Assembly: GCA_965368975.1 (NCBI GenBank)
Contig: CBDUPA010000048.1
Coordinates: 1 to 13,903, forward strand
Reading direction: 5' to 3'
From: an uncultured bacterium
Lineage (GTDB): Bacteria; Acidobacteriota; Thermoanaerobaculia; Multivoradales; JAHZIX01
DNA length: 13,903 nt
Part shown: positions 477-13,492 of the stretch, piece by piece
Numbering within the stretch: position 1 is the stretch's first letter
Layout: each line of letters starts with the position of its first letter
Position numbers and translations under genes: made by a program
The notes under the pieces: generated by a model
Seen by the model: only the letters and a program-made list of their open reading frames with translations
What the model was told of the DNA's origin: nothing
Database searches by the model: none

Positions 477-1589
477 ATGTGGGAACCGACACGCTTCGAG
501 AAGCGTATGCAACAGGCGCTTGAGAGCGAACTGAACCAGGCTGATGCAGAGAATTTCTATAGCCAGTACATCAGCGCGCGTAGAATTCTGCTCAAGGACA
601 TCTACGGAGAAATTCGTGGCGCCGAGCCCAATCTTACAGACCACGGCGCAGACCATATTCAAAATGTTCTGAAAAACCTAGAAGCACTCCTCCCTCCACC
701 GGAAATGGAAGATCACTTCACTGCCCTAGAACTCTATCTGCTCGGCCTTACAGTGCTATTTCATGATGTTGGGAATCTGGAGGGGCGTGCCGAGCACAAC
801 AAGCGGATAGCACGTTTCTACGACTATGTCCGCCGTGATTCACCCGAGCGAATCATGAATGAGAAACGACTTGTGATTGCTGCAGCGAAAGCGCACACAG
901 GACGCTCCTCCGATGGAGATCGCGACACCCTCCGTGATGTCCCTGAGGATGAGTACTTTGAGGCCGAGCGCGTGAGACTTCGCCAACTGGCTGCTCTTCT
1001 CCGGTTTGCTGATGAGCTGGCAGAAGGTCTTCAGCGAACATCTCTCTACCTCCTTCAAGAGCAAAACTACCCCCGAGACTCAGAACTACACCACCGGTAC
1101 TCATCTGTGACGCACGTGGCAATTGATCGTCAAAGAGGAAGAATAGCACTCAACTACCATGTGGATTTTGATGTACTTTCTGATACCCTTGAGGGACGCT
1201 TAGAAGCGCTAGAAAAGCTCCTGCAGTATGTCTGCGTTCGAATCACAAAGCTAGACGAAGAACGAAGGTATGCCAGATTTTACTGCACCCAGGTTCTGGA
1301 CCCATTTCAGAAGACTTCGGCTCGCATCGAGATTCATAGTGAAGGCGAGTTCTTGGACCTGGGACTCGGTTCAATTGAGCTCTCAGACAAGGTGATTCCC
1401 AATGGGAGATCGGGTGCCCACGATCAGATTTCTAGGGCGTTCGATCCAGCGAGGATCAAAGATATTGTGAAGTCGAAGGTGTCAAGAAGGCGCGATAATG
1501 TCCGTGGCCAGGTAGACGCAGCTGGCGGACAGGCCGCGGCACAAGATGACGAGACCATGAACTTGAGTGGTACGGGAGAGTTCTCGTGA
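477..1589 (+). CDS. HD-superfamily metal-dependent phosphohydrolase (HD-CE-like conflict effector), 370 aa
   Basis: Motifs LTDHGADHIQNV, LFHDVGN (HD), RAEH, AKAH and LAALLRFADEL supply the H..HD..H..H..D ligands. GGAGGT at 459-464 precedes ATG 477. Confidence 0.85.
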   Translation: MWEPTRFEKRMQQALESELNQADAENFYSQYISARRILLKDIYGEIRGAEPNLTDHGADHIQNVLKNLEALLPPPEMEDHFTALELYLLGLTVLFHDVGNLEGRAEHNKRIARFYDYVRRDSPERIMNEKRLVIAAAKAHTGRSSDGDRDTLRDVPEDEYFEAERVRLRQLAALLRFADELAEGLQRTSLYLLQEQNYPRDSELHHRYSSVTHVAIDRQRGRIALNYHVDFDVLSDTLEGRLEALEKLLQYVCVRITKLDEERRYARFYCTQVLDPFQKTSARIEIHSEGEFLDLGLGSIELSDKVIPNGRSGAHDQISRAFDPARIKDIVKSKVSRRRDNVRGQVDAAGGQAAAQDDETMNLSGTGEFS

Positions 1590-3328
1590 CAACGATCAAC
1601 CCTTTTTCCTTCTCCGCTGCAACAGATTTAGAGGCGGGTGATCTACTTTATTATTACATTTCTGATCACAATCACTCGCGTTTCATTCAGTCTAAGCGGA
1701 ATATCTTCTTGCTCGGTGAGCGTGGTTCCGGCAAGACTATGACACTTCGCTTTCATTCACTTGAGGTTCAAGAGCTGAAGGCTAAAGAGTCTCAGTCTAA
1801 GCCTTCCCTTGACTGGATTGGAGTCTATGTCCCCTGCAGGACTCCGTTGACACAGCGGACGGATCATGAGCTGCTGGACAAACAACGAGGCTACGTCTTG
1901 TCAGAACATTTCCTTTCGCTTTCGATTCTCAGTGCCATTCTCCAGGCTCTAGAGGTTATTCGGGAAGCATTTCGCACTCTAGATGAAGGCGCGCTCTCGG
2001 AAGAGGTTGAGGCAGTTCTGGCAACGACTCTGCCGGCAGGAAGCAGCTTCCTGTCAAGAATGAGGCGTTTTACCGCGGCAGAAGCAAGAAGAACACAAGT
2101 AGCGATTAACCAAGCGGACGAGGATTTCTATCCCAATGCATTTTCGTTTGCAACTCTCGTTATCCCGATGCTGGAAGCACTGACAAGAATGGAGCCCTTC
2201 TCAAGGTCTCACTTTCTGATCATGCTCGACGATGCAGACTACCTGAACCCACATCAGATTCAAGCGGTAAACTCATGGATCGCATATCGAGATCACTCAA
2301 GATTTAGCTTTAAACTAGCGACTTCGAAGGTCATGCGTCCACATCGCATTACCTCCTCGGGAGGCTCTATCGCAGAGGGCCACGATTTCACGGTAGTTGA
2401 CATGGAAAACCCACTCCACAACGAGCGATCCGACTTTGGGCGTCTTGCCCGACTAATAATCGAGCGACGGCTTGAACGAATCAAATGTAAGTCGACCCCA
2501 GAAGAGTTCTTCCCTGTAGGTCCCTCAGTTGAACGTCAGTTAGAGGAGTGCAGGGCACAGGCACGGACAGAAGCCAAACAGAAGTATCCAAACGGAAGTG
2601 ACAAGCAGATCAGTGACTATGTTTATAAATATTACCGGGCCATCTTCTTCCGAAGACGGCCCAAAGCTAATCGCCCCGTGTATTCCGGATTTGACATGAT
2701 TACTTATTTGTCGACAGGCGTTGTGAGAAATCTCTTGGAGCCTTGCTATGCGATGTACGATAAGGCGCTGTCGCGGACATCGGACCAAGAGTCAGATAGT
2801 TGTCCGATTCAGAGTATCAGCCCTACGATTCAGAGTGAGGTTATTCTAGCTCTGAGCGAGCGACCGTGGGCAAAGCTGGAGGAAGGGCTTCACAACCACA
2901 TTGCTGACTGCACTAAGAAGCAAGCAGAGCAGCTCAAGCAACTGTTCGATGCCTTGGCTCGACTTTTTCGAGAACGCTTGCTCTCAAATTGCTCAGAGCC
3001 GAGAGCAACTTCTTTCACAATTTCAGGAGGGGATTCATTGGAGAGACAAGAGCTGGACCAGCTGCTGAGCATTGCGAGGAAGGCTCTACTACTATACGCG
3101 CGGCAAGGCCCGGCAAAAGCAGCTGGCGCAAGGGAGACATACTATGTCCCGAGTCGTATGCTCTGGCCTGCAAGAGGTTTAGATCCGCTTGGTCAACACG
3201 CTCGTGTCTCACTGAAGGCGAAGGATCTGATGGCAGCGGCTCGCGGCCAGACTAAGCCGTGGACCGGAGCAAGTAAGTCACCGACGCTATCCGACGAGCA
3301 GGCGAGGCTATTTCATGAAGAGAGTTGA
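1586..3328 (+). CDS. P-loop ATPase, ORC/CDC6-like AAA+ type, 580 aa
   Basis: Walker A GERGSGKT, Walker B FLIMLDD after a helical insert, then FKLA, GHDF and LSTGVVRNLLEPC segments. The GTG start overlaps the upstream TGA (GTGA 1586-1589). Confidence 0.85.
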   Translation: MTTINPFSFSAATDLEAGDLLYYYISDHNHSRFIQSKRNIFLLGERGSGKTMTLRFHSLEVQELKAKESQSKPSLDWIGVYVPCRTPLTQRTDHELLDKQRGYVLSEHFLSLSILSAILQALEVIREAFRTLDEGALSEEVEAVLATTLPAGSSFLSRMRRFTAAEARRTQVAINQADEDFYPNAFSFATLVIPMLEALTRMEPFSRSHFLIMLDDADYLNPHQIQAVNSWIAYRDHSRFSFKLATSKVMRPHRITSSGGSIAEGHDFTVVDMENPLHNERSDFGRLARLIIERRLERIKCKSTPEEFFPVGPSVERQLEECRAQARTEAKQKYPNGSDKQISDYVYKYYRAIFFRRRPKANRPVYSGFDMITYLSTGVVRNLLEPCYAMYDKALSRTSDQESDSCPIQSISPTIQSEVILALSERPWAKLEEGLHNHIADCTKKQAEQLKQLFDALARLFRERLLSNCSEPRATSFTISGGDSLERQELDQLLSIARKALLLYARQGPAKAAGARETYYVPSRMLWPARGLDPLGQHARVSLKAKDLMAAARGQTKPWTGASKSPTLSDEQARLFHEES

Positions 3329-4217
3329 TAAGCTTATTGCGGTAGCAAGTTGGGAGCCAAGATTCTATCTTGGGCTCAAGAGGTTGACTCAGCAGGTGAA
3401 GATAAAGAGGTTTGAAATATTCTATTTTCGGGAGTATGCGGAGCGCACTGACTCTGTACGTAAGGAAGCAGCGCTCCTAGCGCGAAACCACGACATCTCC
3501 TGCTCAATGCACGAGCTCTGTTTCGAAGATCCGGCTGCCTCATGGAGGGAGATTTCCTCAACTGTACGCACCGATATCTCAAGTAATAGCAACGTGCTCG
3601 TTGATATCACTACCATGCCACGGGAAACTATATGGTCAGTGCTCTTCTGGTTAGAGGTGTCGAGAGCAAATGTTTCCTATGTTTATCATAGGCCTGAGAG
3701 TTATTCTCAGTCTTGGTTAGCTCGGGATCCGGATCCTCCTCGTTTCGCTTTCAAGCTCGCAGGATCTCCAGAATTGGATAAGCCAACTGCAGTAGTTGCT
3801 GTCACTGGGTACGATAACGAGAGAGCTGTACAGGCAATTGACTTTCTAGAACCTTCCCAGGCAATCCTGTTTAGGCAAATTGGAGATCAACTGGAGAACT
3901 GTGAGCGGAGAGTTGATGAGTCTAACCTCATTCTGTCTCGAGATCTCCATGTGCAGGTGCTTGAGATCGATGCTTACTCTGCCGATCACGGGTTTACCCA
4001 ACTCTATAGACTCACAAGAGATCTGGCGAATACTTACAACGTAGTCATGTTCTCCTTCGGCCCCAAACCCTCAGCGGTGTGCTTATTCAGGGTCCAGCGT
4101 AGAGTGCCGCAAGTTAGCCTCGCGTACATACATTGCAAAGACTATAGTGAGGCTTACTCGACAGGAATTGGGGCGACCCTACAGGGTGCTCTCGCTCTGC
4201 AACCAGAGAGCGCTTGA
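3315..4217 (+). CDS. Hypothetical protein, probable tandem CARF-like Rossmann fold, 300 aa
   Basis: Overlaps the ATPase gene by 14 nt. Two alpha/beta halves: LIAVASWEPR...VLVDITTMPRE...YHRPESY and VVAVTGYDNER...VVMFSFGPKP...YIHCKDY. The CDS is secure; the fold is inferred. Confidence 0.7.
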   Translation: MKRVDKLIAVASWEPRFYLGLKRLTQQVKIKRFEIFYFREYAERTDSVRKEAALLARNHDISCSMHELCFEDPAASWREISSTVRTDISSNSNVLVDITTMPRETIWSVLFWLEVSRANVSYVYHRPESYSQSWLARDPDPPRFAFKLAGSPELDKPTAVVAVTGYDNERAVQAIDFLEPSQAILFRQIGDQLENCERRVDESNLILSRDLHVQVLEIDAYSADHGFTQLYRLTRDLANTYNVVMFSFGPKPSAVCLFRVQRRVPQVSLAYIHCKDYSEAYSTGIGATLQGALALQPESA

Positions 4218-4230
4218 GGTAGTAGTCAGC

Positions 4231-5427
4231 GTGTTGACATTAGACTTGTGCTCTGGTGCTGGCGGCCTTACGAGGGGGTTTGTGCAGGCCGGATTTGAGG
4301 TTAAGCTGGCAATTGAGGTTGACCCGCATGCGGCGAATAGCTACCGAGCCAACTTCGACAGCGTCGAGCTCTTGTGCGAAGATGTGAGGGATGTACCCGA
4401 TGAGTTCTTGGTACGAAAGGTCAAAGAATTGGGAGGGCCACTTGGAGCTGTCATTGCAGGTCTTCCCTGCCAAGGTTTCTCAGAATCTAACCGTAGATCT
4501 CGCACTCGCGAGAATCCAAAGAATCAACTCTATCGGGAATTTCTAAGGATCCTGCGGATCCTCTCTCCTCGGTGGTTTGTCATCGAGAATGTAGCCGGAA
4601 TAACTACTCTAGAATCTGGAGTTTTCTTAGATAGCATCCTAAGGACGTTTCGTGGTGCTGGCTTTAAGGTCTGTGCGAAGGTCTTGGATGCTAGTGATTT
4701 CTCTGTACCGCAAGTCCGCCGGAGAGCTTTCATCGTCGGGAACAGTATTGGGGTAAATTTCAAATTTCCAGATCCGCTGGAGTTGCCTGCAACTGAGAAG
4801 CCTACAGTACTTCATGCAATCTCGGATCTCCCTACCTTAAGGAACGGGGCACAGGAGGACATTGTTGATTATAGGATTGCTTGGGAGGCTGCGAGTAGAT
4901 ACGCGCAGAATCTTCGGCCTCAAGACTCACTTGCAGTAACAGGTAACCGCGTAAGCCGAAATACAGATCGTGTCTTGGCGAGATATAGACATATACCACA
5001 GGGCCGTAACTGGACAGCAATTCCGTCCTCGATGATGAGAAATTACAAAGATCTAAGTGCTTGTCATACGGGGATCTATTATCGATTGGCTTGGGATCAG
5101 CCGTCCAAGGTGATTGGGAATTTTCGGAAGAACATGCTCATCCATCCCGAGCAACATCGAGGACTGTCGATTCGGGAAGCTGCCCGCTTGCAATCGTTCC
5201 CAGATTCTCACACCTTCTTGGGGCCACTTAATCACTGTCAGCAGCAGGTGGGCGACGCAGTGCCTCCCTTATTGGCAGAGGCAGTTGCCCGAGCGATCTT
5301 TCGAGCTGATCCCCTATTTTCAGCTAGTCTGGTGAGCCAGTCAGCGAGAATTGAGACATACCGATTGATAACAGCAGGCAAGACAGGCCCCCCTGACCCA
5401 TTTCCAGGCTCAGCTTCGGCTGATTAG
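4231..5427 (+). CDS. dcm: DNA (cytosine-5)-methyltransferase, about 398 aa
   Basis: Motif I DLCSGAGG, IV GLPCQGFS, VI ENV, VIII QVRRRAF, IX RGLSIREAARLQSFPD, X QQVGDAVPP. Start moved from 4147 to the in-frame GTG at 4231 (GAGGT at 4216-4220), which removes a 71-nt overlap. The symbol denotes the family only, not CCWGG specificity. Confidence 0.95.
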   Translation: MLTLDLCSGAGGLTRGFVQAGFEVKLAIEVDPHAANSYRANFDSVELLCEDVRDVPDEFLVRKVKELGGPLGAVIAGLPCQGFSESNRRSRTRENPKNQLYREFLRILRILSPRWFVIENVAGITTLESGVFLDSILRTFRGAGFKVCAKVLDASDFSVPQVRRRAFIVGNSIGVNFKFPDPLELPATEKPTVLHAISDLPTLRNGAQEDIVDYRIAWEAASRYAQNLRPQDSLAVTGNRVSRNTDRVLARYRHIPQGRNWTAIPSSMMRNYKDLSACHTGIYYRLAWDQPSKVIGNFRKNMLIHPEQHRGLSIREAARLQSFPDSHTFLGPLNHCQQQVGDAVPPLLAEAVARAIFRADPLFSASLVSQSARIETYRLITAGKTGPPDPFPGSASAD

Positions 5428-5672: not shown

Positions 5673-6082
5673 GTTCAACCTCTTTATTCCCAATACTTAG
5701 ACTATTGTAGCTGCTCAGCAATTGAGTGGCAAGCCGTGGTGCGGGCCTCCATCGGGGCTTCCTGGCATGAGATTTGGTGCAATTTGAGATTGCTGCAGCG
5801 AATTGGCTGTTGCTGCTCCAGGGATGGTCGATGATGAGGTTTGCTGTTTTACTCTGGCACGCATCACCGGTGGCATCTGCGAGTCTGTGCTCTCTCCAGC
5901 GCAGGCGGGTGAGAAACCCGCTACTTGTGGCTGTCTAGTCAGCAGGAGCCTGTGCAGCAGGGAGCCTCGCAGTCTGCAGTGGTGGTGTCCAAACGGGCGA
6001 GAGTTCGTAGGCGTACGAATCATGCGAAGTTGCCTTGGTGCTAATGACCGGCAAGAACTATTCCTTTGTCTTGGAGACCAAC

Positions 6083-9000
6083 ATGCGCACGTCCTCTATC
6101 TTTGTCAGTCTGATTTTGGTCCTCGCTCTCTATCCCGCCGAGGCGACGATTTACTGTTCCGACCTTGCTCCGTCCGTCCAGAACACCTTTGTCGAGTTCA
6201 CTCCCGGCGCCAATCCGCAGCTGCCGAGTACTTTCTGCTCTGCCGGCGGTGCCTACTGCACGACACCAATCGCGAGTGCCGTGCAGTACGAAGTCGAGGC
6301 TGCTTGTGACCCGACGGACGAAGGTGGTGGCGGCTGCTACGTGCGAGCGACAGTACCTCTCCAGTTTCCTGGCAACAGTCAGAATGGCTTCAACCAGCAC
6401 TCCAAGGTCTTTTGGTTTCGCCAGGGCAACCCGGCGCCGAGCGGCGTCTGTGCTCCGGGTGGCTTTCCGACCGGCAACGGCTGCTCACCCAACTCCATCT
6501 GTGGCTCCAGCTTCAACGAGATTCTTGTCGAGGAAGGTGAGACGTTCATCCAGGTCGGCGGGCTGCACTGTGGCAATGTCTTCAACGCCGAAGGTTTGCA
6601 GATGTGGCAGGTCGACGCAATCAGCTGTAACTTCCGGTCCGCCTCCAGCTGCGTGCGTCAGACCATCGTCCCCGTCGATCTGACGGCCTCGCTCGTAGCC
6701 GGTCTCTTCAACTGCCCTGAACCGCCTCCGGAATACGACTGCGACTGCTCGACGTGTCCTTCTATCGGCAGCTCAGCAGGGGGCGGTGGTGGTGGCAGTG
6801 GCAACGCCGGTGACGGAGCCGGCAGCTACGACGGCGGTCTCGCGACCGGACCAGGTGCGCGCCTCTATTACCGCGCCAAAGGCGTCGGCACAGCTGGTCA
6901 TCCCGGTTCAGTCTCTTGGGGAGTTGAACTCGGCGTCGGCTGGTCGCACCACTACGCAATCCGGATCGTCGAAGATCCCGACGCCAACCACGTCTGGTTC
7001 CTCAACCGCATGGGGAGCTTCCGCGAGTTCTCGAACCCGGACGGCTCGGGCGTCTACCAGACGGTGAACCCGAGCGATGAGTACCGGACTTTGACCCACC
7101 TGAGCGACGGAATGGGTGCGACGCTGGGCTGGGAGCTGCGTGAGCTGGACGGCACTGTCCACGCCTTCGGGGCCACCGGTCGCTGGACCTCGACGACGGA
7201 CCGCTTCAGCAACGCCAAGACGGCGACTTACACCGGGGGTCAGCTGACCCACGTCGACTTCCCTGACGGTCGCAGCGAGACGTTCACCTACCATGGCAGC
7301 GGCAAGCTGGCGACGATCTCCGAGGTTGGTGTAGACAGTGTCACGACGCGCACTTGGTCCTATACCTGGACCAGCGACGAGTTGACGCGCATCGATGCAC
7401 CGGACGGCACGGCGCTGCTGTTCCTCTACAGCGGTGGCTACCTGACCCGCGTGACCAAGGAAGGAACCAGCGGCGGCCTGCGCGTCGAGGCGGCGTGGGA
7501 GTACACGGGCGGCCGGGTGACCCGGATGTGGCGCGGGGATGTTACCCATGATGGTCTCAACTCAGTAGAACTCTATGAATTCGCCTACGACATGCCCGGA
7601 CTGCCCACCGAGGTCGATGTCACCGATCCATTGGGCAACGTCTCGACCTACCACCTGGGTCGCGACGAGGCTGGTAACAAGCCGAGGTTGGAGCAGCTCG
7701 AAGGTGATTGTCCGACCTGCGGGCTCGGCCCGAATACTGTGCTGACCTACGGCGATCCGAGCCACCCGCTGCGTCCGACGCAGGAGGCAGACGGGCGTGG
7801 CATCGTGACGACCTACGCCTACGATGCCAACGGTCAAGTCATCAGTCGCGTCGAAGCCCTGGGCACGGCGCTGGAGCGCGAGACCACGTGGCAGTACGAT
7901 GCGACCTACCCCGCGCTCGTGACTCGCGTCGAACGGCCGTCCGTCGAGGGTGCGCCGGAGACGCGCATGACGATCCACACCTACAGTGCAGGCGGCGCCC
8001 TCCAGCAAAGCCAGGAGAGTGGCTTCGAAGACAGCTCGCCCTTTGTGTTCGACACCCTCTACACCACGAACGGTGCCGGTATGCGCACCAGCGTCGATCC
8101 GCCCGGCCACGGCACTGCCGATGCCATCAGCTGGACCTACGATGCGACGCGCGGCGATCTGATCTGGCTCAACCGCACCGACCCTCTGATCGGTGCCACC
8201 ATCTTCACCTACGACGCCTTCAACCGCCGCACTCAGGTCACCGACCCCAACGGCGTGGCCACCGAAACGGCGTACGACGCGCTCAACCGCGTCACCTCCT
8301 TCACCCAGAAGGGCGCTAGCCCAGCCGAGGACCTGGCGACCACGTACACCTACACCGAGTTCGGCGACCTCTTCCAGGTCACCCTGCCGCGCGGCAACGT
8401 GATCGAGTATCGCTATGACGCTGCTGGCCGTCTGAGCCGCATCGAACGCAAGCCCGATCTCGCCGGCCGCGCCGAGCGCACGCTCTACACGCTCGATACC
8501 TACGGTCACCGCATCCAAGAACAGTTCCAACGCTGGAACGGCGCCAGCTTCGACACCGAGAGCACCACCAGCTATACCTACTCGACGCGCTGCAATCTGG
8601 ACCAGATCCAGCACGCCGACGGCTCCGTGACCGAGTTCGCCTACGACTGTAACGGCAACCTGACCGATGTCTGGGACGCCAACCACCCCAGTGCCAGCCA
8701 GACAAACCCACCCACCACGCTCTACGCGTACGATTCGCTCAACAGGCTAGAGCAAGTCAGCCAGCTGTGGGGCCCGGGACCAGGTGCGACCTACACCCAG
8801 GCGGACTATCAATATGACGTCCAAGATCACCTTGTGAGCGTCACAGACGCCGAGGGCAACGCGACGGCGTACACTTATAGTGACCGCGACCTGATGACCG
8901 AAGAGTCGTCGCCGGTCTCCGGAGTCACCAGCTACGTCTACGGTGACTCTGGTCAGCTCACCAGCGAAACCGACGCCCGTGGTATCACCACGGCACGCGT

Positions 9001-10885
9001 TTACGACGATCTGGACCGCATCACGCAGGTCGATTACTCGGGAACCGACTTGGACATCACCTACACCTACGATGATCCCATGGTTGACTTCAGCCTCGGC
9101 CGGCTGACCCAGATCGGCCGAGCCAGTGGCAACGTCGACTACCAGTACGATCGATTCGGCTGGGTCACGCAGGACGGCGCTTTCACCTACGCCCACGACG
9201 CCAACGGCAATCGCCAGACCATCACCTACCCAGGTGGCCTTATCGCCACGTACACCTTCGACCATGCCGACCGCGAAGTCAGCCTGACCGCACAGCCCTC
9301 CGGTGGCAGCGTCCAGAGCATCGCCAGCGCTGCCACCTACGCCGCGCTCGGCCCCCTGACATCGCTGACCCTGGGCAACGGCCTGACCGAGAACCGCGCC
9401 TGGACGCCGAGGTACTTCCCTCAATCCATCGAGTTGAGCGGTGCTGGCGGCACCGCGCTGCGTTGGAACTACAGCACTGACGCCGAAGGCAACATCACTA
9501 CCATTTCCAACCCTAACAATGCTGCCGACAACCGGACGTTCGCCTATCAAGACGTGCAGTACTACTTGACCTCGGGCAATGGTCCATGGGGTGCTCTGAG
9601 CTGGACCTACGACCAGATTGGCAACAGGTTGACCGAGACGCGGGATGGGCTGACCGATACCTACAGCTACGTCCAGAACGCCGGCTCGAACAACACCGCC
9701 ATCTTGGAGCAGATCCAGCTCGGCATCGGTGGTCAGCGTTCGTACCAGCACGGCCCCGCTGGGCACATGACACAGATCGATTCCGCCGGCAACGTCACCG
9801 ACCTAGCGTACGACGCTGCTGGAAGATTGAGCCAGTTGCTCAAGCCGGTCACTCAGAACACGACCGACTTCTTGTACGACGGTCGTTCGTACCTGGTGAG
9901 TTCGGAAGCCGGTGTGATGGACGGCATTTTCGCGGACGACTTCGAGCTAGGTACCCTGAGCTGCTGGTCTTCGAAGTACGACAACGGAGTCGTCACCACC
10001 TCCGGGCAAGACTGCCAAACGTTCGTGACACTGCCCACCTACAGCTCCGAAGGTGTGCTGCATTCGCTCGACAAATTCGACGGTAGGGAAGGCATCGACG
10101 AGGTGCAGCACTTCCTGTACTTTGCGGGTCGGCCGGTGGCACAGGTGGCCGAGGCGAGTGGTGGCGTGGTTTACGAGTGGATCACGACGGATCACCTCGG
10201 AACGCCGGCAGTTGTCACGGATGCTGTGGGCATCGAGGTGTGGAGCGGGGGATTTGAGCCGTTCGGGCGGGATTATTCGACGGCGGCGGGGACGTCGTTG
10301 CGGTTGCCGGGGCAGTGGGAGGATGGGAGCTGGGAAGGAAGCGGATCTGGGGTGCTCCCATACCAGAATGTGCATCGGTGGTATCTCGCAGGTAATGGCC
10401 GGTTCTCCCGAAGCGATCCAATCGGATTGGCAGGAGGACTGAATATTTTCTTGTTCGGAGCAGGAAATCCTGTATCAAGGACCGATCCCTTGGGATTGCA
10501 GACGCGAAATGATCTAGCAGACTTCAAGATTCCCACTGCAGAAGAGATTGAGAAAGCTCACCAACGAATTTGTGCTCGTCAGGCATTCTTTGGCAACTAC
10601 AGCGATATGGTGGAGGCGAACTGGAGAAAGTCCGATAAGTACTTTCACTGTAAGGCGAATTGCGAAGCTGCCCGGTGTGGAGATTTCGGATTTCAACATG
10701 CTTGTCAATTAAGTGATCTCAGGGAATCCTTCGATCGCATTATAAAAGGAGATCCTCCAAGCGCCTCAGAAGAAGATCAGGCAGCAAATAGACATGGCAG
10801 GGAAGGGGCGAGAGAGTACCCGGACAAGACCTGCCAGATCATCTGTGCTCGTTTTCGGCCTAAGGGGTTGCCTGAAGAATACTAG
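6083..10885 (+). CDS. rhs: Secreted Rhs/YD-repeat polymorphic toxin with serum amyloid A-like C-terminal domain, about 1600 aa
   Basis: ATG 6083 with GGAGA at 6073-6077; signal peptide MRTSSIFVSLILVLALYPAEA; Cys-rich N-domain; LGVGWSHHY motif; many YD repeats; Rhs core end TDHLGTP...PGQW...HRWY...GRFSRSDPIGLAGGLN...NPVSRTDPLGL; 128-aa tip from 10499. Confidence 0.95.
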   Translation: MRTSSIFVSLILVLALYPAEATIYCSDLAPSVQNTFVEFTPGANPQLPSTFCSAGGAYCTTPIASAVQYEVEAACDPTDEGGGGCYVRATVPLQFPGNSQNGFNQHSKVFWFRQGNPAPSGVCAPGGFPTGNGCSPNSICGSSFNEILVEEGETFIQVGGLHCGNVFNAEGLQMWQVDAISCNFRSASSCVRQTIVPVDLTASLVAGLFNCPEPPPEYDCDCSTCPSIGSSAGGGGGGSGNAGDGAGSYDGGLATGPGARLYYRAKGVGTAGHPGSVSWGVELGVGWSHHYAIRIVEDPDANHVWFLNRMGSFREFSNPDGSGVYQTVNPSDEYRTLTHLSDGMGATLGWELRELDGTVHAFGATGRWTSTTDRFSNAKTATYTGGQLTHVDFPDGRSETFTYHGSGKLATISEVGVDSVTTRTWSYTWTSDELTRIDAPDGTALLFLYSGGYLTRVTKEGTSGGLRVEAAWEYTGGRVTRMWRGDVTHDGLNSVELYEFAYDMPGLPTEVDVTDPLGNVSTYHLGRDEAGNKPRLEQLEGDCPTCGLGPNTVLTYGDPSHPLRPTQEADGRGIVTTYAYDANGQVISRVEALGTALERETTWQYDATYPALVTRVERPSVEGAPETRMTIHTYSAGGALQQSQESGFEDSSPFVFDTLYTTNGAGMRTSVDPPGHGTADAISWTYDATRGDLIWLNRTDPLIGATIFTYDAFNRRTQVTDPNGVATETAYDALNRVTSFTQKGASPAEDLATTYTYTEFGDLFQVTLPRGNVIEYRYDAAGRLSRIERKPDLAGRAERTLYTLDTYGHRIQEQFQRWNGASFDTESTTSYTYSTRCNLDQIQHADGSVTEFAYDCNGNLTDVWDANHPSASQTNPPTTLYAYDSLNRLEQVSQLWGPGPGATYTQADYQYDVQDHLVSVTDAEGNATAYTYSDRDLMTEESSPVSGVTSYVYGDSGQLTSETDARGITTARVYDDLDRITQVDYSGTDLDITYTYDDPMVDFSLGRLTQIGRASGNVDYQYDRFGWVTQDGAFTYAHDANGNRQTITYPGGLIATYTFDHADREVSLTAQPSGGSVQSIASAATYAALGPLTSLTLGNGLTENRAWTPRYFPQSIELSGAGGTALRWNYSTDAEGNITTISNPNNAADNRTFAYQDVQYYLTSGNGPWGALSWTYDQIGNRLTETRDGLTDTYSYVQNAGSNNTAILEQIQLGIGGQRSYQHGPAGHMTQIDSAGNVTDLAYDAAGRLSQLLKPVTQNTTDFLYDGRSYLVSSEAGVMDGIFADDFELGTLSCWSSKYDNGVVTTSGQDCQTFVTLPTYSSEGVLHSLDKFDGREGIDEVQHFLYFAGRPVAQVAEASGGVVYEWITTDHLGTPAVVTDAVGIEVWSGGFEPFGRDYSTAAGTSLRLPGQWEDGSWEGSGSGVLPYQNVHRWYLAGNGRFSRSDPIGLAGGLNIFLFGAGNPVSRTDPLGLQTRNDLADFKIPTAEEIEKAHQRICARQAFFGNYSDMVEANWRKSDKYFHCKANCEAARCGDFGFQHACQLSDLRESFDRIIKGDPPSASEEDQAANRHGREGAREYPDKTCQIICARFRPKGLPEEY

Positions 10886-10907
10886 CCTGAACGGAAGGAT
10901 GATCGAC

Positions 10908-11063
10908 ATGAGGAAATTGCTGATTTTGCTAGCTTTCCTTCTAGTCTTAGGTACCCTAGCCTATCTTGTAAGAGGTTGGCTGGCTGTAGATTCGTGCCTT
11001 GATCGCGGTGGAAGCTGGGACTACGAGCATCGGGTCTGTCTTGCTCCAGAAACCGACGAGTAG
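10908..11063 (+). CDS. Small single-TM protein (51 aa), candidate immunity protein
   Basis: MRKLLILLAFLLVLGTLAYLVRGWLAVDSCLDRGGSWDYEHRVCLAPETDE. GGAAGGA at 10893-10899 precedes the start, which lies 22 nt after the toxin stop. Composition is similar to the toxin tip. Confidence 0.7.
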   Translation: MRKLLILLAFLLVLGTLAYLVRGWLAVDSCLDRGGSWDYEHRVCLAPETDE

Positions 11064-11171: not shown

Positions 11172-11899
11172 CAGGTCGAAGCCAGCCTGGGCGAGCTGGC
11201 AGCGGCACGCCGCTTGGCTCGGGATGCGGAGGAGCTGTACTTGCAAGCGCGCGCCTACTTCGCGCTGGATTGCAGGCCTACCATTTGGCACGCCTCGCAG
11301 CCTGGCAAGCGCAGTCCGCGCGGGCCGTCGAGGAATTGGAGCGTGCTCTCCAACTGCTTGATCTACCTACCGTGCCTCGGCTGCGTCGCTGGCTGCTCGT
11401 CGAGCTGGCATTCTTCTATTTTGAGACAGGAGCTGCCGTGCGGGGTAGTGAAGAGATGGAGTTAGCCCGATCGCTGGGGCCCCGCTCCTCGGACCTGGAC
11501 GCCGCCCGGGGCCTACTGTTTGTCCACACAGGAGAGGTGCCGGAAGGGCTTCGTTGGTTGGGCAAGGCGCGCGAGAGCGTGCAAGCCTCACAGCCAGGAG
11601 TGCCTGTGCATCGCTCTTTGCCAATCCTCACGCTGGACTTGGTCGAGGCGGAGCTGACCTTGCCCTCACCGCGCCGCGATCCGGCCCGCTGGCTAGAAGA
11701 CGAGGCTTCGCGTGCGGCACTGGGCCAGCGTCCGCCATTGTTGCAAGAGCGCTGGCGACAATTGGTGCCCAAGGTGCGCTTGAACCAGGTAGAGCCGACC
11801 TTGCTCCATCTCCTGTGCGCCGATCTGCAACGCGCCGAAGCTTTTCCGCACCGGGAATGGGTGGCGGGTGCCGCCAGCCCAATCCTGAGTTCTAGGTAG
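11172..11899 (+). pseudogene. 5'-truncated, probably frameshifted helical (TPR-like) gene remnant
   Basis: QVEASLGELAAARRLARDAEELYLQARAYFAL in one frame continues as AYHLARLAAWQAQSARAVEELERALQLL...ARGLLFVHTGEVPEGLRWLGKA in another, with a frame change near 11265-11270. No convincing start or RBS. Confidence 0.5.
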
Positions 11900-11972: not shown

Positions 11973-12091
11973 GGTACCAGCCCATCCGGGTGCCAGCCTG
12001 TTCAGCTCAGGCTGACGCCCTCCCAGCAAACGGCCCGATCCAGCGTTGCACCGCCGAACCGGGCCTAGCCACTCAAAGGAGGATTGTTCCC

Positions 12092-12502
12092 ATGAGTGAC
12101 CAGCCGCAGCATACCAATGCGCAGCCGCCGAGCGCCCTGCAGCCGCGCCACTGGGAGGCGCACGCCGTCTTCCGCGAGACGTACTTGCACCTCTACCCGG
12201 AAGCGTATAACCGCGACGCCTTCCGCAGCGTCGGCGTGACGCTCTACGACAACGCCCTGCTTCACGAAGAAACCTACAAGGAGCGCGGCGAAGTACCGGT
12301 CAAGTCGGACCTGCGCGCCGCGCTCCGGGACCTGCGTCAGCTGCAAGGCTACATCCACCACCTTGGTGCAGAGGCGGGCAGCGACGACGACCCCGAGATC
12401 GTCCAGTTCCAGAGCCTGGCGATCGAGGTGTCTGAACAACTGGGAGTCCAAGCAGCCCAGCTCGAAGCAAGCCTGGGGGCAGCTCCGGACCAGGAGAGCT
12501 GA
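12092..12502 (+). CDS. Hypothetical protein, 136 aa, helical C-terminal half
   Basis: Strong RBS AAAGGAGGA (12075-12083) before ATG 12092, in frame with the 11990 ORF; GC3-rich codons; 3 nt from the next gene. Confidence 0.8.
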   Translation: MSDQPQHTNAQPPSALQPRHWEAHAVFRETYLHLYPEAYNRDAFRSVGVTLYDNALLHEETYKERGEVPVKSDLRAALRDLRQLQGYIHHLGAEAGSDDDPEIVQFQSLAIEVSEQLGVQAAQLEASLGAAPDQES

Positions 12503-12505
12503 GCG

Positions 12506-13492
12506 ATGCCGGACATGAACACCGGCACCCACGTCGCACAAGCCGAGCAGGAGATCCAGCGTTGCTGCGCGCAACTGCTCGTTCGCTTTGGAGCAGAGCT
12601 TGGGCGATATCCGCCGCGGATCTGCATCCAGGGTTTGTCACCTGGATCGGACCGCAGGCGAGACGAGCAGCCGCAACCGGTACGCGTACCCGCGCATGCT
12701 CTGACGGGCTCGAGGTCCGAGGTTTTGACGGCGTTGCTCCATGCGATGGTGCACTGGGTCAACGGTCTGCGCGATATCAAGGACTGTTGCTATCGCGGCT
12801 ACCACAACCGCAGATTCCGCGACCTCGCCCAGCAAGTCGGCTTCGAGGTCGGAGAGCGTGTGCACCGCTTCGGCTGGACCGATCTGCAAACGAGTGCCGC
12901 ACTCACAGCTGAGCTTCAGGAGATCTCGTTCGACGAGAGCATCCTGTCTCCGCTGCTGGCGGGACTCAGCGCCGAGAAGCGACGCCCTCGACCCTGTCGC
13001 ACCAACCTTCCGAGACGCCGACCGGTCAGCCCTTTCTGGCAGGACGGTAGTGCCCTACCGAGGCTATCGCGCCTGCGCGTCGAACTGGTGCGCGAGGCGA
13101 GCGCACCCTTGCACACGTACCCTCGGGTGCGTGCTCAAGGTGACGCCGCCGCGCTGCTCTGGCAGGTTCTGCAGAGCTACGACCGCGAAGCCTTGGCCGT
13201 GCTGTTCCTGGACGCAACCCGCCGCGTGATCGGCTGGGATGTGCCGTACATCGGCACCCTTACCGGTGCGCAGGCCGAGCCGCGTGGCATTCTGGTACCG
13301 GCGCTGCTGGCGCAGGCGCGATCGGTTGCTGTTGGGCACAACCACCCCTCGTGCAACCCGAGACCAAGTCGGCAGGATGAACGCTTCACGTACCGGCTGC
13401 GCGAGGCTGGGCGAGTCCTGGGCGTCGAGCTGTACGTCTCGATCACGCTCGTGGGTGCCGGCCAGTGGCGCCAGATCCTGCCGGTGCGGTGA
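12506..13492 (+). CDS. radC: Fusion of a SprT-like zincin domain (degenerate) and a RadC-like JAB domain, 328 aa
   Basis: N-half LLHAMVH...GYHNRRFRDLAQQVGFEV...GW; C-half DREALAVLFLD...IGTL...EPRGI...GHNHPSCNPRPSRQD...AGRVLGVEL. Confidence 0.85.
   Translation: MPDMNTGTHVAQAEQEIQRCCAQLLVRFGAELGRYPPRICIQGLSPGSDRRRDEQPQPVRVPAHALTGSRSEVLTALLHAMVHWVNGLRDIKDCCYRGYHNRRFRDLAQQVGFEVGERVHRFGWTDLQTSAALTAELQEISFDESILSPLLAGLSAEKRRPRPCRTNLPRRRPVSPFWQDGSALPRLSRLRVELVREASAPLHTYPRVRAQGDAAALLWQVLQSYDREALAVLFLDATRRVIGWDVPYIGTLTGAQAEPRGILVPALLAQARSVAVGHNHPSCNPRPSRQDERFTYRLREAGRVLGVELYVSITLVGAGQWRQILPVR

Follow-up and report, generated by a model that had tools for sequence, protein, structure and literature searches.

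What does a serum amyloid A (SAA) domain do at the end of a bacterial toxin, and what is the very small gene that follows it? SAA has been a clinical marker for decades and, to our knowledge, has no agreed molecular activity. The question is raised by contig CBDUPA010000048.1 (C48) of an uncultured bacterium of the Acidobacteriota (assembly GCA_965368975.1; genome of 7.1 Mb, 99.3% complete), whose entire 13,903 bp were analysed here and are called the window. Its plus strand carries an Rhs polymorphic-toxin gene that ends in an SAA-type tip, and 22 nt after the stop codon starts a 51-codon open reading frame (ORF), a candidate immunity gene.

A framework for such a toxin exists in print. In the part of their paper drawn on here, Burroughs, Nicastro and Aravind (eLife 2025, PMC12419801) define the Lipocone superfamily, place animal SAA (Met-SAA) and bacterial SAA (prok-SAA) in its SAA-Wnt clade, and name prok-SAA, by computational analysis, as a tip of polymorphic toxins; they derive animal SAA from such bacterial toxins and cite Zamocky and Ferianc 2023 for bacterial SAA. 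The SAA-tip toxin is thus a kind already published, and the present locus is one more member. A first-pass annotation, made from the letters of this DNA without database searches, had rightly supposed that the bacterial SAA link was not wholly new, but it overrated the novelty, since the link, the role as a toxin and the derivation of animal SAA from bacteria can all be found in that paper's available text.

The tip is an SAA domain by sequence and fold

The gene and its tip lie as follows.

6035..10885, plus strand: Rhs polymorphic-toxin gene, an open frame of 1616 aa counted from the first TTG
10499..10885, plus strand: toxin tip, 128 aa and stop (first residue Q at nt 10499, stop codon at 10883-10885)
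10577-10882, plus strand: SAA/prok-SAA Lipocone domain proper, within the toxin tip

After the boundary motif NPVSRTDPLGL (nt 10469-10498, with DPLGL at nt 10484-10498) the translation reads from QTRNDL to RFRPKGLPEEY and the stop codon, so that the SAA domain sits as a toxin tip behind DPLGL, where the first-pass annotation had put it. The motifs on which that annotation relied, namely NYSDMVEANWRKSDKYFHCKANCEAARCG, SDLRESFDR, EEDQAANRHGREG and RFRPKGLPEEY before the stop, are found as quoted, and its view of the tip as a close SAA homologue is borne out by the Pfam SAA profile PF00277, which matches at 93.7 bits (cut-off 30.8; E 1e-26) with tip residues 27-128 on positions 11-102 of 102. The match begins at profile position 11, the first ~10 residues of mature animal SAA being without profile counterpart. 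In a profile search of the genome the domain scores 93.3 bits and is the only SAA copy. A phmmer search of the PDB sequences places SAA chains in the eight best of 11 listed matches (E 2.9e-13 to 5.2e-8, the other three at E 0.36 or above), and its alignment with human SAA1 (4ip8) begins at residue 19 of that protein and closes with the final residue of each partner (105 in SAA1), which confirms the colinearity to the last residue that had been read by eye. When the PDB sequences were searched with a profile from alignment A1 (the tip, 25 short bacterial or metagenomic homologues and five animal SAAs), SAA chains were followed by noise from E 0.34 up, with no TelC and no Wnt. The likeness of the tip to SAA is far beyond chance. 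The bacterial tip has an 11-residue Cys-bearing insert ahead of (F/Y)RPxGLP that is absent from animal SAAs, and it contains seven Cys (C25, C51, C55, C60, C69, C112 and C116 in tip numbering, which is used throughout).

An AlphaFold2 model of the tip computed on alignment A1 (mean pLDDT 93.9, pTM 0.85) has helices at residues 14-39, 47-58, 62-83 and 87-106 and a short one at 112-115, the four-helix cone with short fifth helix of the family. Foldseek against the PDB returns seven matches at E 0.001 or better, all of them SAA crystals, and the next match has E 1.2; for 6py0, 4q5g, 4ip9, 4ip8 and 6pxz the target template-modelling (TM) score is 0.86-0.90, the root-mean-square deviation (rmsd) 1.8-2.5 Å and the identity 36-38%. 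The SAA four-helix bundle, on which the first-pass annotation had proposed to superpose such a model, is recovered. A wide VIA-align search with the same model gave no match at Z 8 or above (best 6.9), and SAA was not among the 50 matches shown. These are a mixture with many unrelated helical proteins, and we draw no inference from the presence among them of Wnt8A (7kc4_D; Z 6.1, rmsd 4.2, 99 residues aligned) or of human PSS1 (9b4f_A; Z 5.6, rmsd 2.9, 67 aligned).

The predicted active site is conserved

The predicted Lipocone site consists of a His on helix 2, a Glu on helix 3, an Asp on helix 4, an acidic residue near the end of helix 3 and an sNxxGR motif on helix 4, and the predicted chemistry is hydrolysis or transfer at phosphate-linked lipid head groups, according to the sections of PMC12419801 used here. 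The corresponding codons in the tip are these.

10646..10648, plus strand: H50, predicted catalytic His on helix 2 (DKYFH), invariant in alignment A1
10724..10726, plus strand: E76, predicted catalytic Glu on helix 3, in 180/181 bacterial and 6/6 animal domains
10733-10735, plus strand: D79, towards the end of helix 3 and fourth of the polar positions, D in 163/181 bacterial domains
10775..10801, plus strand: D93-Q-A-A-N97-R-H-G100-R101, the helix-4 Asp and the sNxxGR motif of the SAA-Wnt clade

The His, the Glu, the Asp and the sNxxGR motif (A96-N97-R-H-G100-R101) are thus all present. Conservation was counted over 181 bacterial and six animal domains of 90-150 residues that were picked by their YFH motif, proteins without this motif and domains outside this length range being left out; counts at positions 48-55, including H50 (present in every domain), C51 and C55, are circular for this reason. 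D93, N97 and G100 are each found in 180/181 bacterial and all six animal domains, R101 in 171/181 and 6/6, and D46 in 181/181 and 6/6. The two residues singled out by the first-pass annotation, the His of DKYFH (H50) and the Asp of DQAAN (D93), turn out to be two of the active-site positions predicted, as far as its text was available, in PMC12419801. At position 79 none of the six animal SAAs has D, and five have Q. Animal SAA therefore retains three of the four predicted active-site positions, the fourth (position 79) not being kept.

The Cys residues divide into two classes. C112 and C116, which lie within the 11-residue insert, occur in 176 and 177 of the 181 bacterial domains, and C51 and C55 in 180 each (at the circular positions); none of the four is found in any of the six animal domains. 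C25, C60 and C69 are partial within the bacterial family, with 47, 50 and 82 of 181. Two disulfides between the CxxxC pairs are likely from the sequence, because the pairs lie on helices 2 and 5, which pack together according to the text of PMC12419801 at hand.

A membrane-anchored microprotein is encoded downstream

The gene behind the toxin has the following layout.

10893..10899, plus strand: Shine-Dalgarno-like GGAAGGA, 8 nt ahead of ATG 10908, as read from the sequence
10908..11063, plus strand: candidate immunity gene, 51 aa, with an N-terminal membrane helix and then the motif VDSCLDRGGSWDYEHRVC

Its product is MRKLLILLAFLLVLGTLAYLVRGWLAVDSCLDRGGSWDYEHRVCLAPETDE; an alternative ATG at 10899 would give 54 aa. 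To see how general this arrangement is, one has to look at related loci. A scan of one genome per species yielded 175 confirmed SAA loci, of which the best 80 were used, so that together with the window 81 loci could be compared, and the small-protein family was recovered by reading the DNA downstream of the 80 related loci. The same kind of small ORF lies directly downstream of the SAA gene in 65 of the 81 loci, in several phyla. Its motif C-x-[DN]-x-G-G-x-[WFY] was counted 66 times in the downstream DNA (44 kb) and is absent from the remaining 408 kb in all six reading frames. In an alignment of 34 copies (A2) C30, D32, G34, G35, W37 and C44 are invariant; the copies have either a basic N-terminus with a hydrophobic helix or, in L035, L040 and L045, a lipobox. 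Pfam and NCBIfam searches with the 34 members gave no family, only scattered single matches at E 0.0014 or weaker, and a word-index search with the 51-aa protein as query returned nothing but the copy in the window. The model of the 51-aa protein (pLDDT 91.6) has a helix at residues 2-32 and a hairpin at 36-38/43-45, so that C30 and C44 come to lie where they could be joined by a disulfide.

The type of partner follows the toxin tip through its phylogeny: on the tree of the 81 tips, in which five rows have no partner label, partner type changes 5 times as compared with 9.6 in shuffles, and none of 500 shuffles was as low. A complex prediction of the tip with the 51-aa protein scored 0.54 (runs 0.58, 0.54 and 0.52; best control 0.02), with at least 93% of contacts agreeing between runs and a partner pLDDT of at least 83, a score that the prediction tool rates as weak because 7 of 80 solved complexes and both passing mismatched pairs lie at 0.60 or below. 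Gene linkage together with this prediction makes it quite probable that the 51-aa protein is the immunity protein for the tip. That the tip acts outside the cytoplasm had been derived in the first-pass annotation from its seven Cys. The four family-wide Cys fit this view, whereas the count of seven is a weaker basis for it than the partner, whose membrane anchor gives extracytoplasmic action the better support.

The small-protein family is present in four of 61 related genomes, two that also carry the toxin and two further ones (G014 and G016). No SAA match was found in G014 and G016, and no toxin gene adjoins the two copies with readable surroundings, so that these are likely to be orphan immunity genes, for which such a pattern is usual. 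The orphan-like copies are L091 (G014:C6) at 1363-1635, L093 (G016:C25) at 1492-1635 and L092 (G016:C51), one of the three being at a contig start.

Sixteen of the 81 loci are without the small ORF; two of these end too early and 14 have another gene downstream. In 10 of the 14 (L020, L024, L032, L038, L050, L072, L073, L075, L081 and L085) the place right behind the SAA gene is taken by a second conserved partner family of ~140-175 aa, whose members have a membrane anchor or a lipobox and share the motifs GW(I/V)P.(F/W)LP and (H/N)(N/D)(L/I)DTNE.W; Pfam searches with four of its members gave no family. Another of the 14, L049, has a variant of the small protein without the Trp. The prok-SAA immunity domain described in the main text of PMC12419801 has one helix, four strands and four invariant Cys. 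The window's partner, which is 51 aa long, joins one membrane helix to a hairpin of two strands and has two invariant Cys, could be set against that domain by description only, and it may be a minimal form of the four-Cys domain or a separate family. At L087 (2732-3004), also one of the 14, and at L086, which is cut off at the locus end, we observed a 91-aa partner with a membrane helix and four Cys that starts with CLD. The L087 protein may be the four-Cys domain as PMC12419801 describes it, and its CLD start hints that the two-Cys microprotein may be related to that domain. At L080, ~77-560 nt past the SAA stop, a second copy of the microprotein gene follows an ORF ending in ...FRPKGINEKY. 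That ORF resembles what is left of a displaced SAA tip, and the arrangement would then be an orphan toxin-immunity module in tandem.

The carrier is an Rhs protein with a predicted signal peptide

Upstream of the tip the Rhs gene is organized as follows.

6083..6145, plus strand: predicted Sec signal peptide MRTSSIFVSLILVLALYPAEA, cleavage after AEA, read from the sequence
6146..6900, plus strand: N-terminal region rich in Cys and Gly, without Pfam match
6901..10498, plus strand: RHS/YD-repeat shell and core (Pfam RHS_repeat), ending in the PxxxxDPxGL boundary motif

Likelier starts than the first TTG are ATG 6044, which gives the 1613-aa form found in the database (P0002), and ATG 6083 (MRTSS...). 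Over the whole protein Pfam finds RHS_repeat (PF05593; E 9e-45, 10 stretches) and SAA at residues 1516-1616, and for the same protein P0002 a match to PF25023 is precomputed, so the YD-repeat shell of an Rhs toxin is present. We predict from the sequence that the carrier is an Rhs protein with a Sec signal peptide; similar hydrophobic N-terminal leaders are seen in the relatives P0195, P0196, P0199, P0200, P0201 and P0212. The full-length relatives with SAA tips are P0199, the closest with 48% identity over 1622 columns, P0006 and P0195, and it is only with these three that the region 6146..6900 is weakly shared (31-38% identity); it is possibly a receptor-binding or export module. Delivery by a type VI secretion system (T6SS) was considered and is rejected for this genome, as neither PAAR (PF05488) nor the sheath protein TssC/VipB (PF05943) was found in it and the Rhs N-terminus is a predicted signal peptide. 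The genome contains no close Rhs paralogue that could be found; its other Rhs genes match the core weakly (E 1e-7 or weaker), so that no donor for a tip swap was found inside the genome.

Distribution and relatives of the SAA tips

An exhaustive HMMER scan of 1.84 billion cluster representatives gave 804 matches at E 0.001 or better, of which 411 reach 1e-10 and 11 reach 1e-30. Among the 150 matches listed, which are proteins of 97-2155 aa, the SAA domain lies at or near the C-terminal end in nearly all. RHS-family Pfam domains were found in 24 of 35 longer homologues, while the 51 shorter ones all match PF00277, many of them being named RHS fragments; the five weakest are animal SAAs with 42-46% identity. 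A DPxGL-type motif stands no more than 90 residues upstream of the SAA domain in 51 of the 80 best loci and in 114 of 184 bacterial motif-bearing proteins. The record titles of these 80 loci name Acidobacteriota, many Pseudomonadota, cyanobacteria, Nitrospira, Bdellovibrio and further groups. Metagenomes commonly contain Rhs proteins with SAA tips, and as a discovery the locus itself is ordinary. Among the 61 related genomes, the window's own included, two have an SAA match. On the tree of the 81 tips the window's tip belongs to a nine-row clade (SH-aLRT 96) whose titles include Acidobacteria, Thermoanaerobaculia and Holophagales and also Steroidobacteraceae and Rhodanobacter, a mixture that suggests transfer between phyla. 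In an unrooted tree of animal and bacterial SAA the five animal rows form one group (SH-aLRT 99). One animal-type protein of 280 aa (P0148) consists of two full SAA units in tandem, each with its own signal peptide, and is probably a fused gene model.

Comparison with known systems

The closest published counterpart is prok-SAA as presented in PMC12419801. As far as its text could be compared, it shares with the tip the soluble four-helix cone with short fifth helix, the His, Glu and Asp and the sNxxGR motif, and also the position as C-terminal tip of polymorphic toxins and the membrane or lipoprotein immunity partners that point to the periplasm; periplasmic action of toxins of the prok-SAA type is argued there from such partners. 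An Rhs carrier with a Sec signal peptide is not named for prok-SAA in the text of PMC12419801 that was at hand.

Animal SAA (human SAA1, 4ip8/4ip9; mouse SAA3, 4q5g/6py0) has the Pfam family and the fold in common with the tip and is colinear with it to the C-terminal Y. The identity is 36-38% in the structure alignments and 42-46% by BLAST over 74% of the tip, and D46, Y48, F49, H50, E76, D93, A96, N97 and G100 are identical. The animal proteins differ in being free, secreted proteins of ~104 residues with their own N-terminal ~10 residues, without the four bacterial Cys or the 11-residue insert, and with Q at position 79. The tip is accordingly not of the animal acute-phase (Met-SAA) type, being fused to a 1488-aa carrier, matching the profile from position 11 and having the four Cys and the insert.

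More distant members of the superfamily offer biochemical parallels. TelC of Streptococcus intermedius, with its immunity protein TipC, is likewise a Lipocone toxin tip with membrane-associated immunity, and the portion of PMC12419801 consulted reports that it cleaves lipid II and is toxic only outside the cytoplasm. It differs in its Lipocone clade, its LXG carrier of the type VII secretion system (T7SS), its Gram-positive host and an unrelated immunity fold, and neither the PDB sequence profile search nor Foldseek lists a match of TelC to the tip. VanZ/Llp1 and YfiM, which the 2025 classification puts into the same superfamily, are described, in the available part of a preprint, as Ca-dependent lipid-linked oligosaccharide pyrophosphatases, and the change of YfiM K28, H31, E72 or D91 to Ala abolished activity (bioRxiv 10.64898/2026.09.16.752124). 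YfiM H31, E72, D87 and D91 are paralleled by H50...E76...D93-x3-N97, and the i/i+4 spacing of D93 and N97 equals that of VanZ D143/D147 and YfiM D87/D91. These proteins differ, as far as that text goes, in being integral membrane enzymes of housekeeping or resistance, in having Asp at i+4 and in a His-to-Glu spacing of 41 as compared with 26 in the tip.

Classical Rhs toxins, both the PAAR-Rhs effectors of the T6SS and the Sec-dependent WapA of Bacillus, resemble the window's protein in their YD shell and PxxxxDPxGL boundary, in a tip that can be swapped and has an immunity gene of its own, and in a break of base composition at the tip. From the T6SS effectors it differs by its predicted Sec signal peptide, with no PAAR or T6SS sheath gene found in the genome.

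Proposed mechanism and alternatives

We propose that the Rhs polymorphic toxin with its YD-repeat shell would be exported by Sec, and that the prok-SAA payload would be released at the PxxxxDPxGL boundary, as in other Rhs proteins. After delivery across the outer membrane of the target, the payload would act at the outer face of its cytoplasmic membrane as a metal-dependent hydrolase, cleaving a phosphate-linked lipid head group by means of H50, E76, D93 and N97, residues that would lie at the mouth of the helical cone. Undecaprenyl-pyrophosphate-linked envelope precursors, for example lipid II, would be the favoured substrates because of the analogy with TelC, VanZ and YfiM. The 51-aa protein would be anchored in the inner membrane of the producer, where its periplasmic disulfide-stapled helix-hairpin (CLDxGGxW...C) would bind and block the toxin, and tip and immunity gene would move together as a low-GC (guanine-cytosine) cassette. 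For this composite, a Sec-exported Rhs protein with a prok-SAA head-group hydrolase and a cognate 51-aa immunity protein, we think the case is somewhat better than even.

Several points weigh against it. The literature consulted turned up no enzymatic activity of any SAA-family protein, bacterial or animal, and the chemistry assigned to the tip is borrowed by analogy from distant Lipocone families, among which other VanZ-like proteins with conserved sites were inactive on the test substrate, as stated in the accessible text of the preprint (bioRxiv 10.64898/2026.09.16.752124). The i+4 residue is Asn in the tip, where VanZ and YfiM have Asp, and the odd number of Cys means that at least one is unpaired. 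The RHS core profile PF03527 reaches only 21.7 bits on the Rhs protein, under the cut-off of 27.9, although the NPVSRTDPLGL motif is present. Neither PAAR and TssC/VipB nor any other export or delivery machinery for the toxin was found in the 99.3%-complete genome, and the complex prediction lends weak support to binding between tip and partner.

Animal SAA is associated with lipid and with high-density lipoprotein (HDL), and membrane-active and antibacterial effects of it have been reported. The tip might accordingly be a non-catalytic lipid binder whose polar residues bind a ligand and which kills because it ties up a membrane or carrier lipid, perturbs the membrane or makes it leaky; mouse SAA3 has been crystallised with retinol bound (6py0, among the best fold matches), and the silence of the literature consulted on SAA enzymatic activity fits such a role as well. 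Yet a His-Glu-Asp-Asn constellation in 180/181 bacterial and 6/6 animal domains is typical of catalysis or metal binding, and the same positions are catalytic in YfiM and VanZ according to what could be consulted of bioRxiv 10.64898/2026.09.16.752124, which leaves pure lipid binding rather unlikely in our view. If the tip is catalytic, it could instead attack ordinary membrane phospholipid rather than a polyprenyl-linked precursor, by removal or exchange of the head group as in phospholipase D or PTDSS enzymes. The Lipocone superfamily includes PTDSS1/2, whose targets are the head groups of phosphatidylcholine and phosphatidylethanolamine, and its toxins may hit other lipids (PMC12419801, in the part available). 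Human PSS1 (9b4f) is found among the middling fold matches (Z 5.6, rmsd 2.9, 67 residues), but for a helical bundle a Z under 8 has no value as evidence, and all three bacterial or toxin Lipocone families whose assays appear in the sources as consulted (TelC, VanZ/Llp1 and YfiM) act on polyprenyl-pyrophosphate-linked substrates. We regard a phospholipid substrate as improbable.

A different kind of objection is that the module is not antibacterial at all, being aimed at eukaryotic or other non-kin cells, or that its SAA domain is structural or signalling, in which case the small ORF would not be an immunity gene. The part of PMC12419801 drawn on here does describe prok-SAA in predator-type architectures without immunity genes, and 16 of the 81 loci are without the small ORF. 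Ten of these, however, have the second conserved lipoprotein in its place, the membrane-anchored partner is tightly and widely linked to the toxin and is kept in genomes in which no SAA match was found, and the Rhs and DPxGL context is standard for interbacterial toxins, so that we consider this objection very unlikely to hold. Our preference therefore stays with the exported head-group hydrolase and its membrane-anchored immunity protein.

Cassette composition and genomic setting

The composition of the locus changes sharply at the tip. The GC content at third codon positions (GC3) falls from 0.774 in the Rhs body to 0.465 in the tip and 0.481 in the immunity gene and is back at 0.742 downstream, and the total GC content is 0.623 in the body, 0.486 in the tip and 0.50 in the immunity gene. 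The low GC of the tip and the small gene relative to the Rhs body is the hallmark of a toxin-immunity module that was gained independently of its carrier. With this low-GC cassette and an ORF linked in 65 of 81 loci, the locus shows the variable tip and adjacent downstream gene of Rhs toxins. Around it lie the following genes.

477-1589, plus strand: HD-CE protein, in a defence-type gene group upstream of the Rhs gene
1586-3328, plus strand: ORC/CDC6-like ATPase, same defence-type gene group
3315-4217, plus strand: protein matching PADLOC 'CARF6' candidate-system models (E 3e-22)
4147-5427, plus strand: type II C5 cytosine methyltransferase, same defence-type gene group
11270-11899 and 11990-12502, plus strand: two ORFs (209 and 170 aa) that separate the immunity gene from RadC
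12506-13492, plus strand: RadC-like JAB protein, downstream of the Rhs locus
to 13901, plus strand: first part of an integrase with Arm DNA-binding domain, truncated by the end of the contig

The defence-type group (477-5427) has a GC content of ~0.51, below that of the Rhs body. The two ORFs behind the immunity gene gave no Pfam or PADLOC match, and no tRNA gene was found in the window. Lying between defence-type genes on one side and RadC and integrase on the other, the locus looks like part of a mobile island.

Significance

What makes the locus worthwhile is a clean and very widespread pair of toxin and microprotein. A toxin version of SAA with an intact predicted active site and a matched candidate immunity gene is a simple selectable test system: whether the SAA fold hydrolyses lipid head groups, as predicted in 2025, could be decided either way from periplasmic toxicity, its rescue by the partner and the effect of point mutations. 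Should its role be confirmed, the tiny immunity protein would also be a marker for finding such toxins, and it is one that gene callers easily miss. Taken together, the data permit a more far-reaching reading that we offer tentatively and hold to be the less probable outcome: the CLDxGGxW...C protein would found an undescribed family of micro-immunity proteins, in which a disulfide-stapled hairpin, held by a single membrane helix, plugs the mouth of the cone at the membrane surface and whose genes spread together with SAA-tip toxins and also on their own, as protection in genomes without a detected toxin. As the predicted catalytic constellation of the toxin is identical in animal SAA, the pair would then offer the first genetic access to the question whether SAA is an enzyme that cuts the head groups of bacterial carrier lipids.

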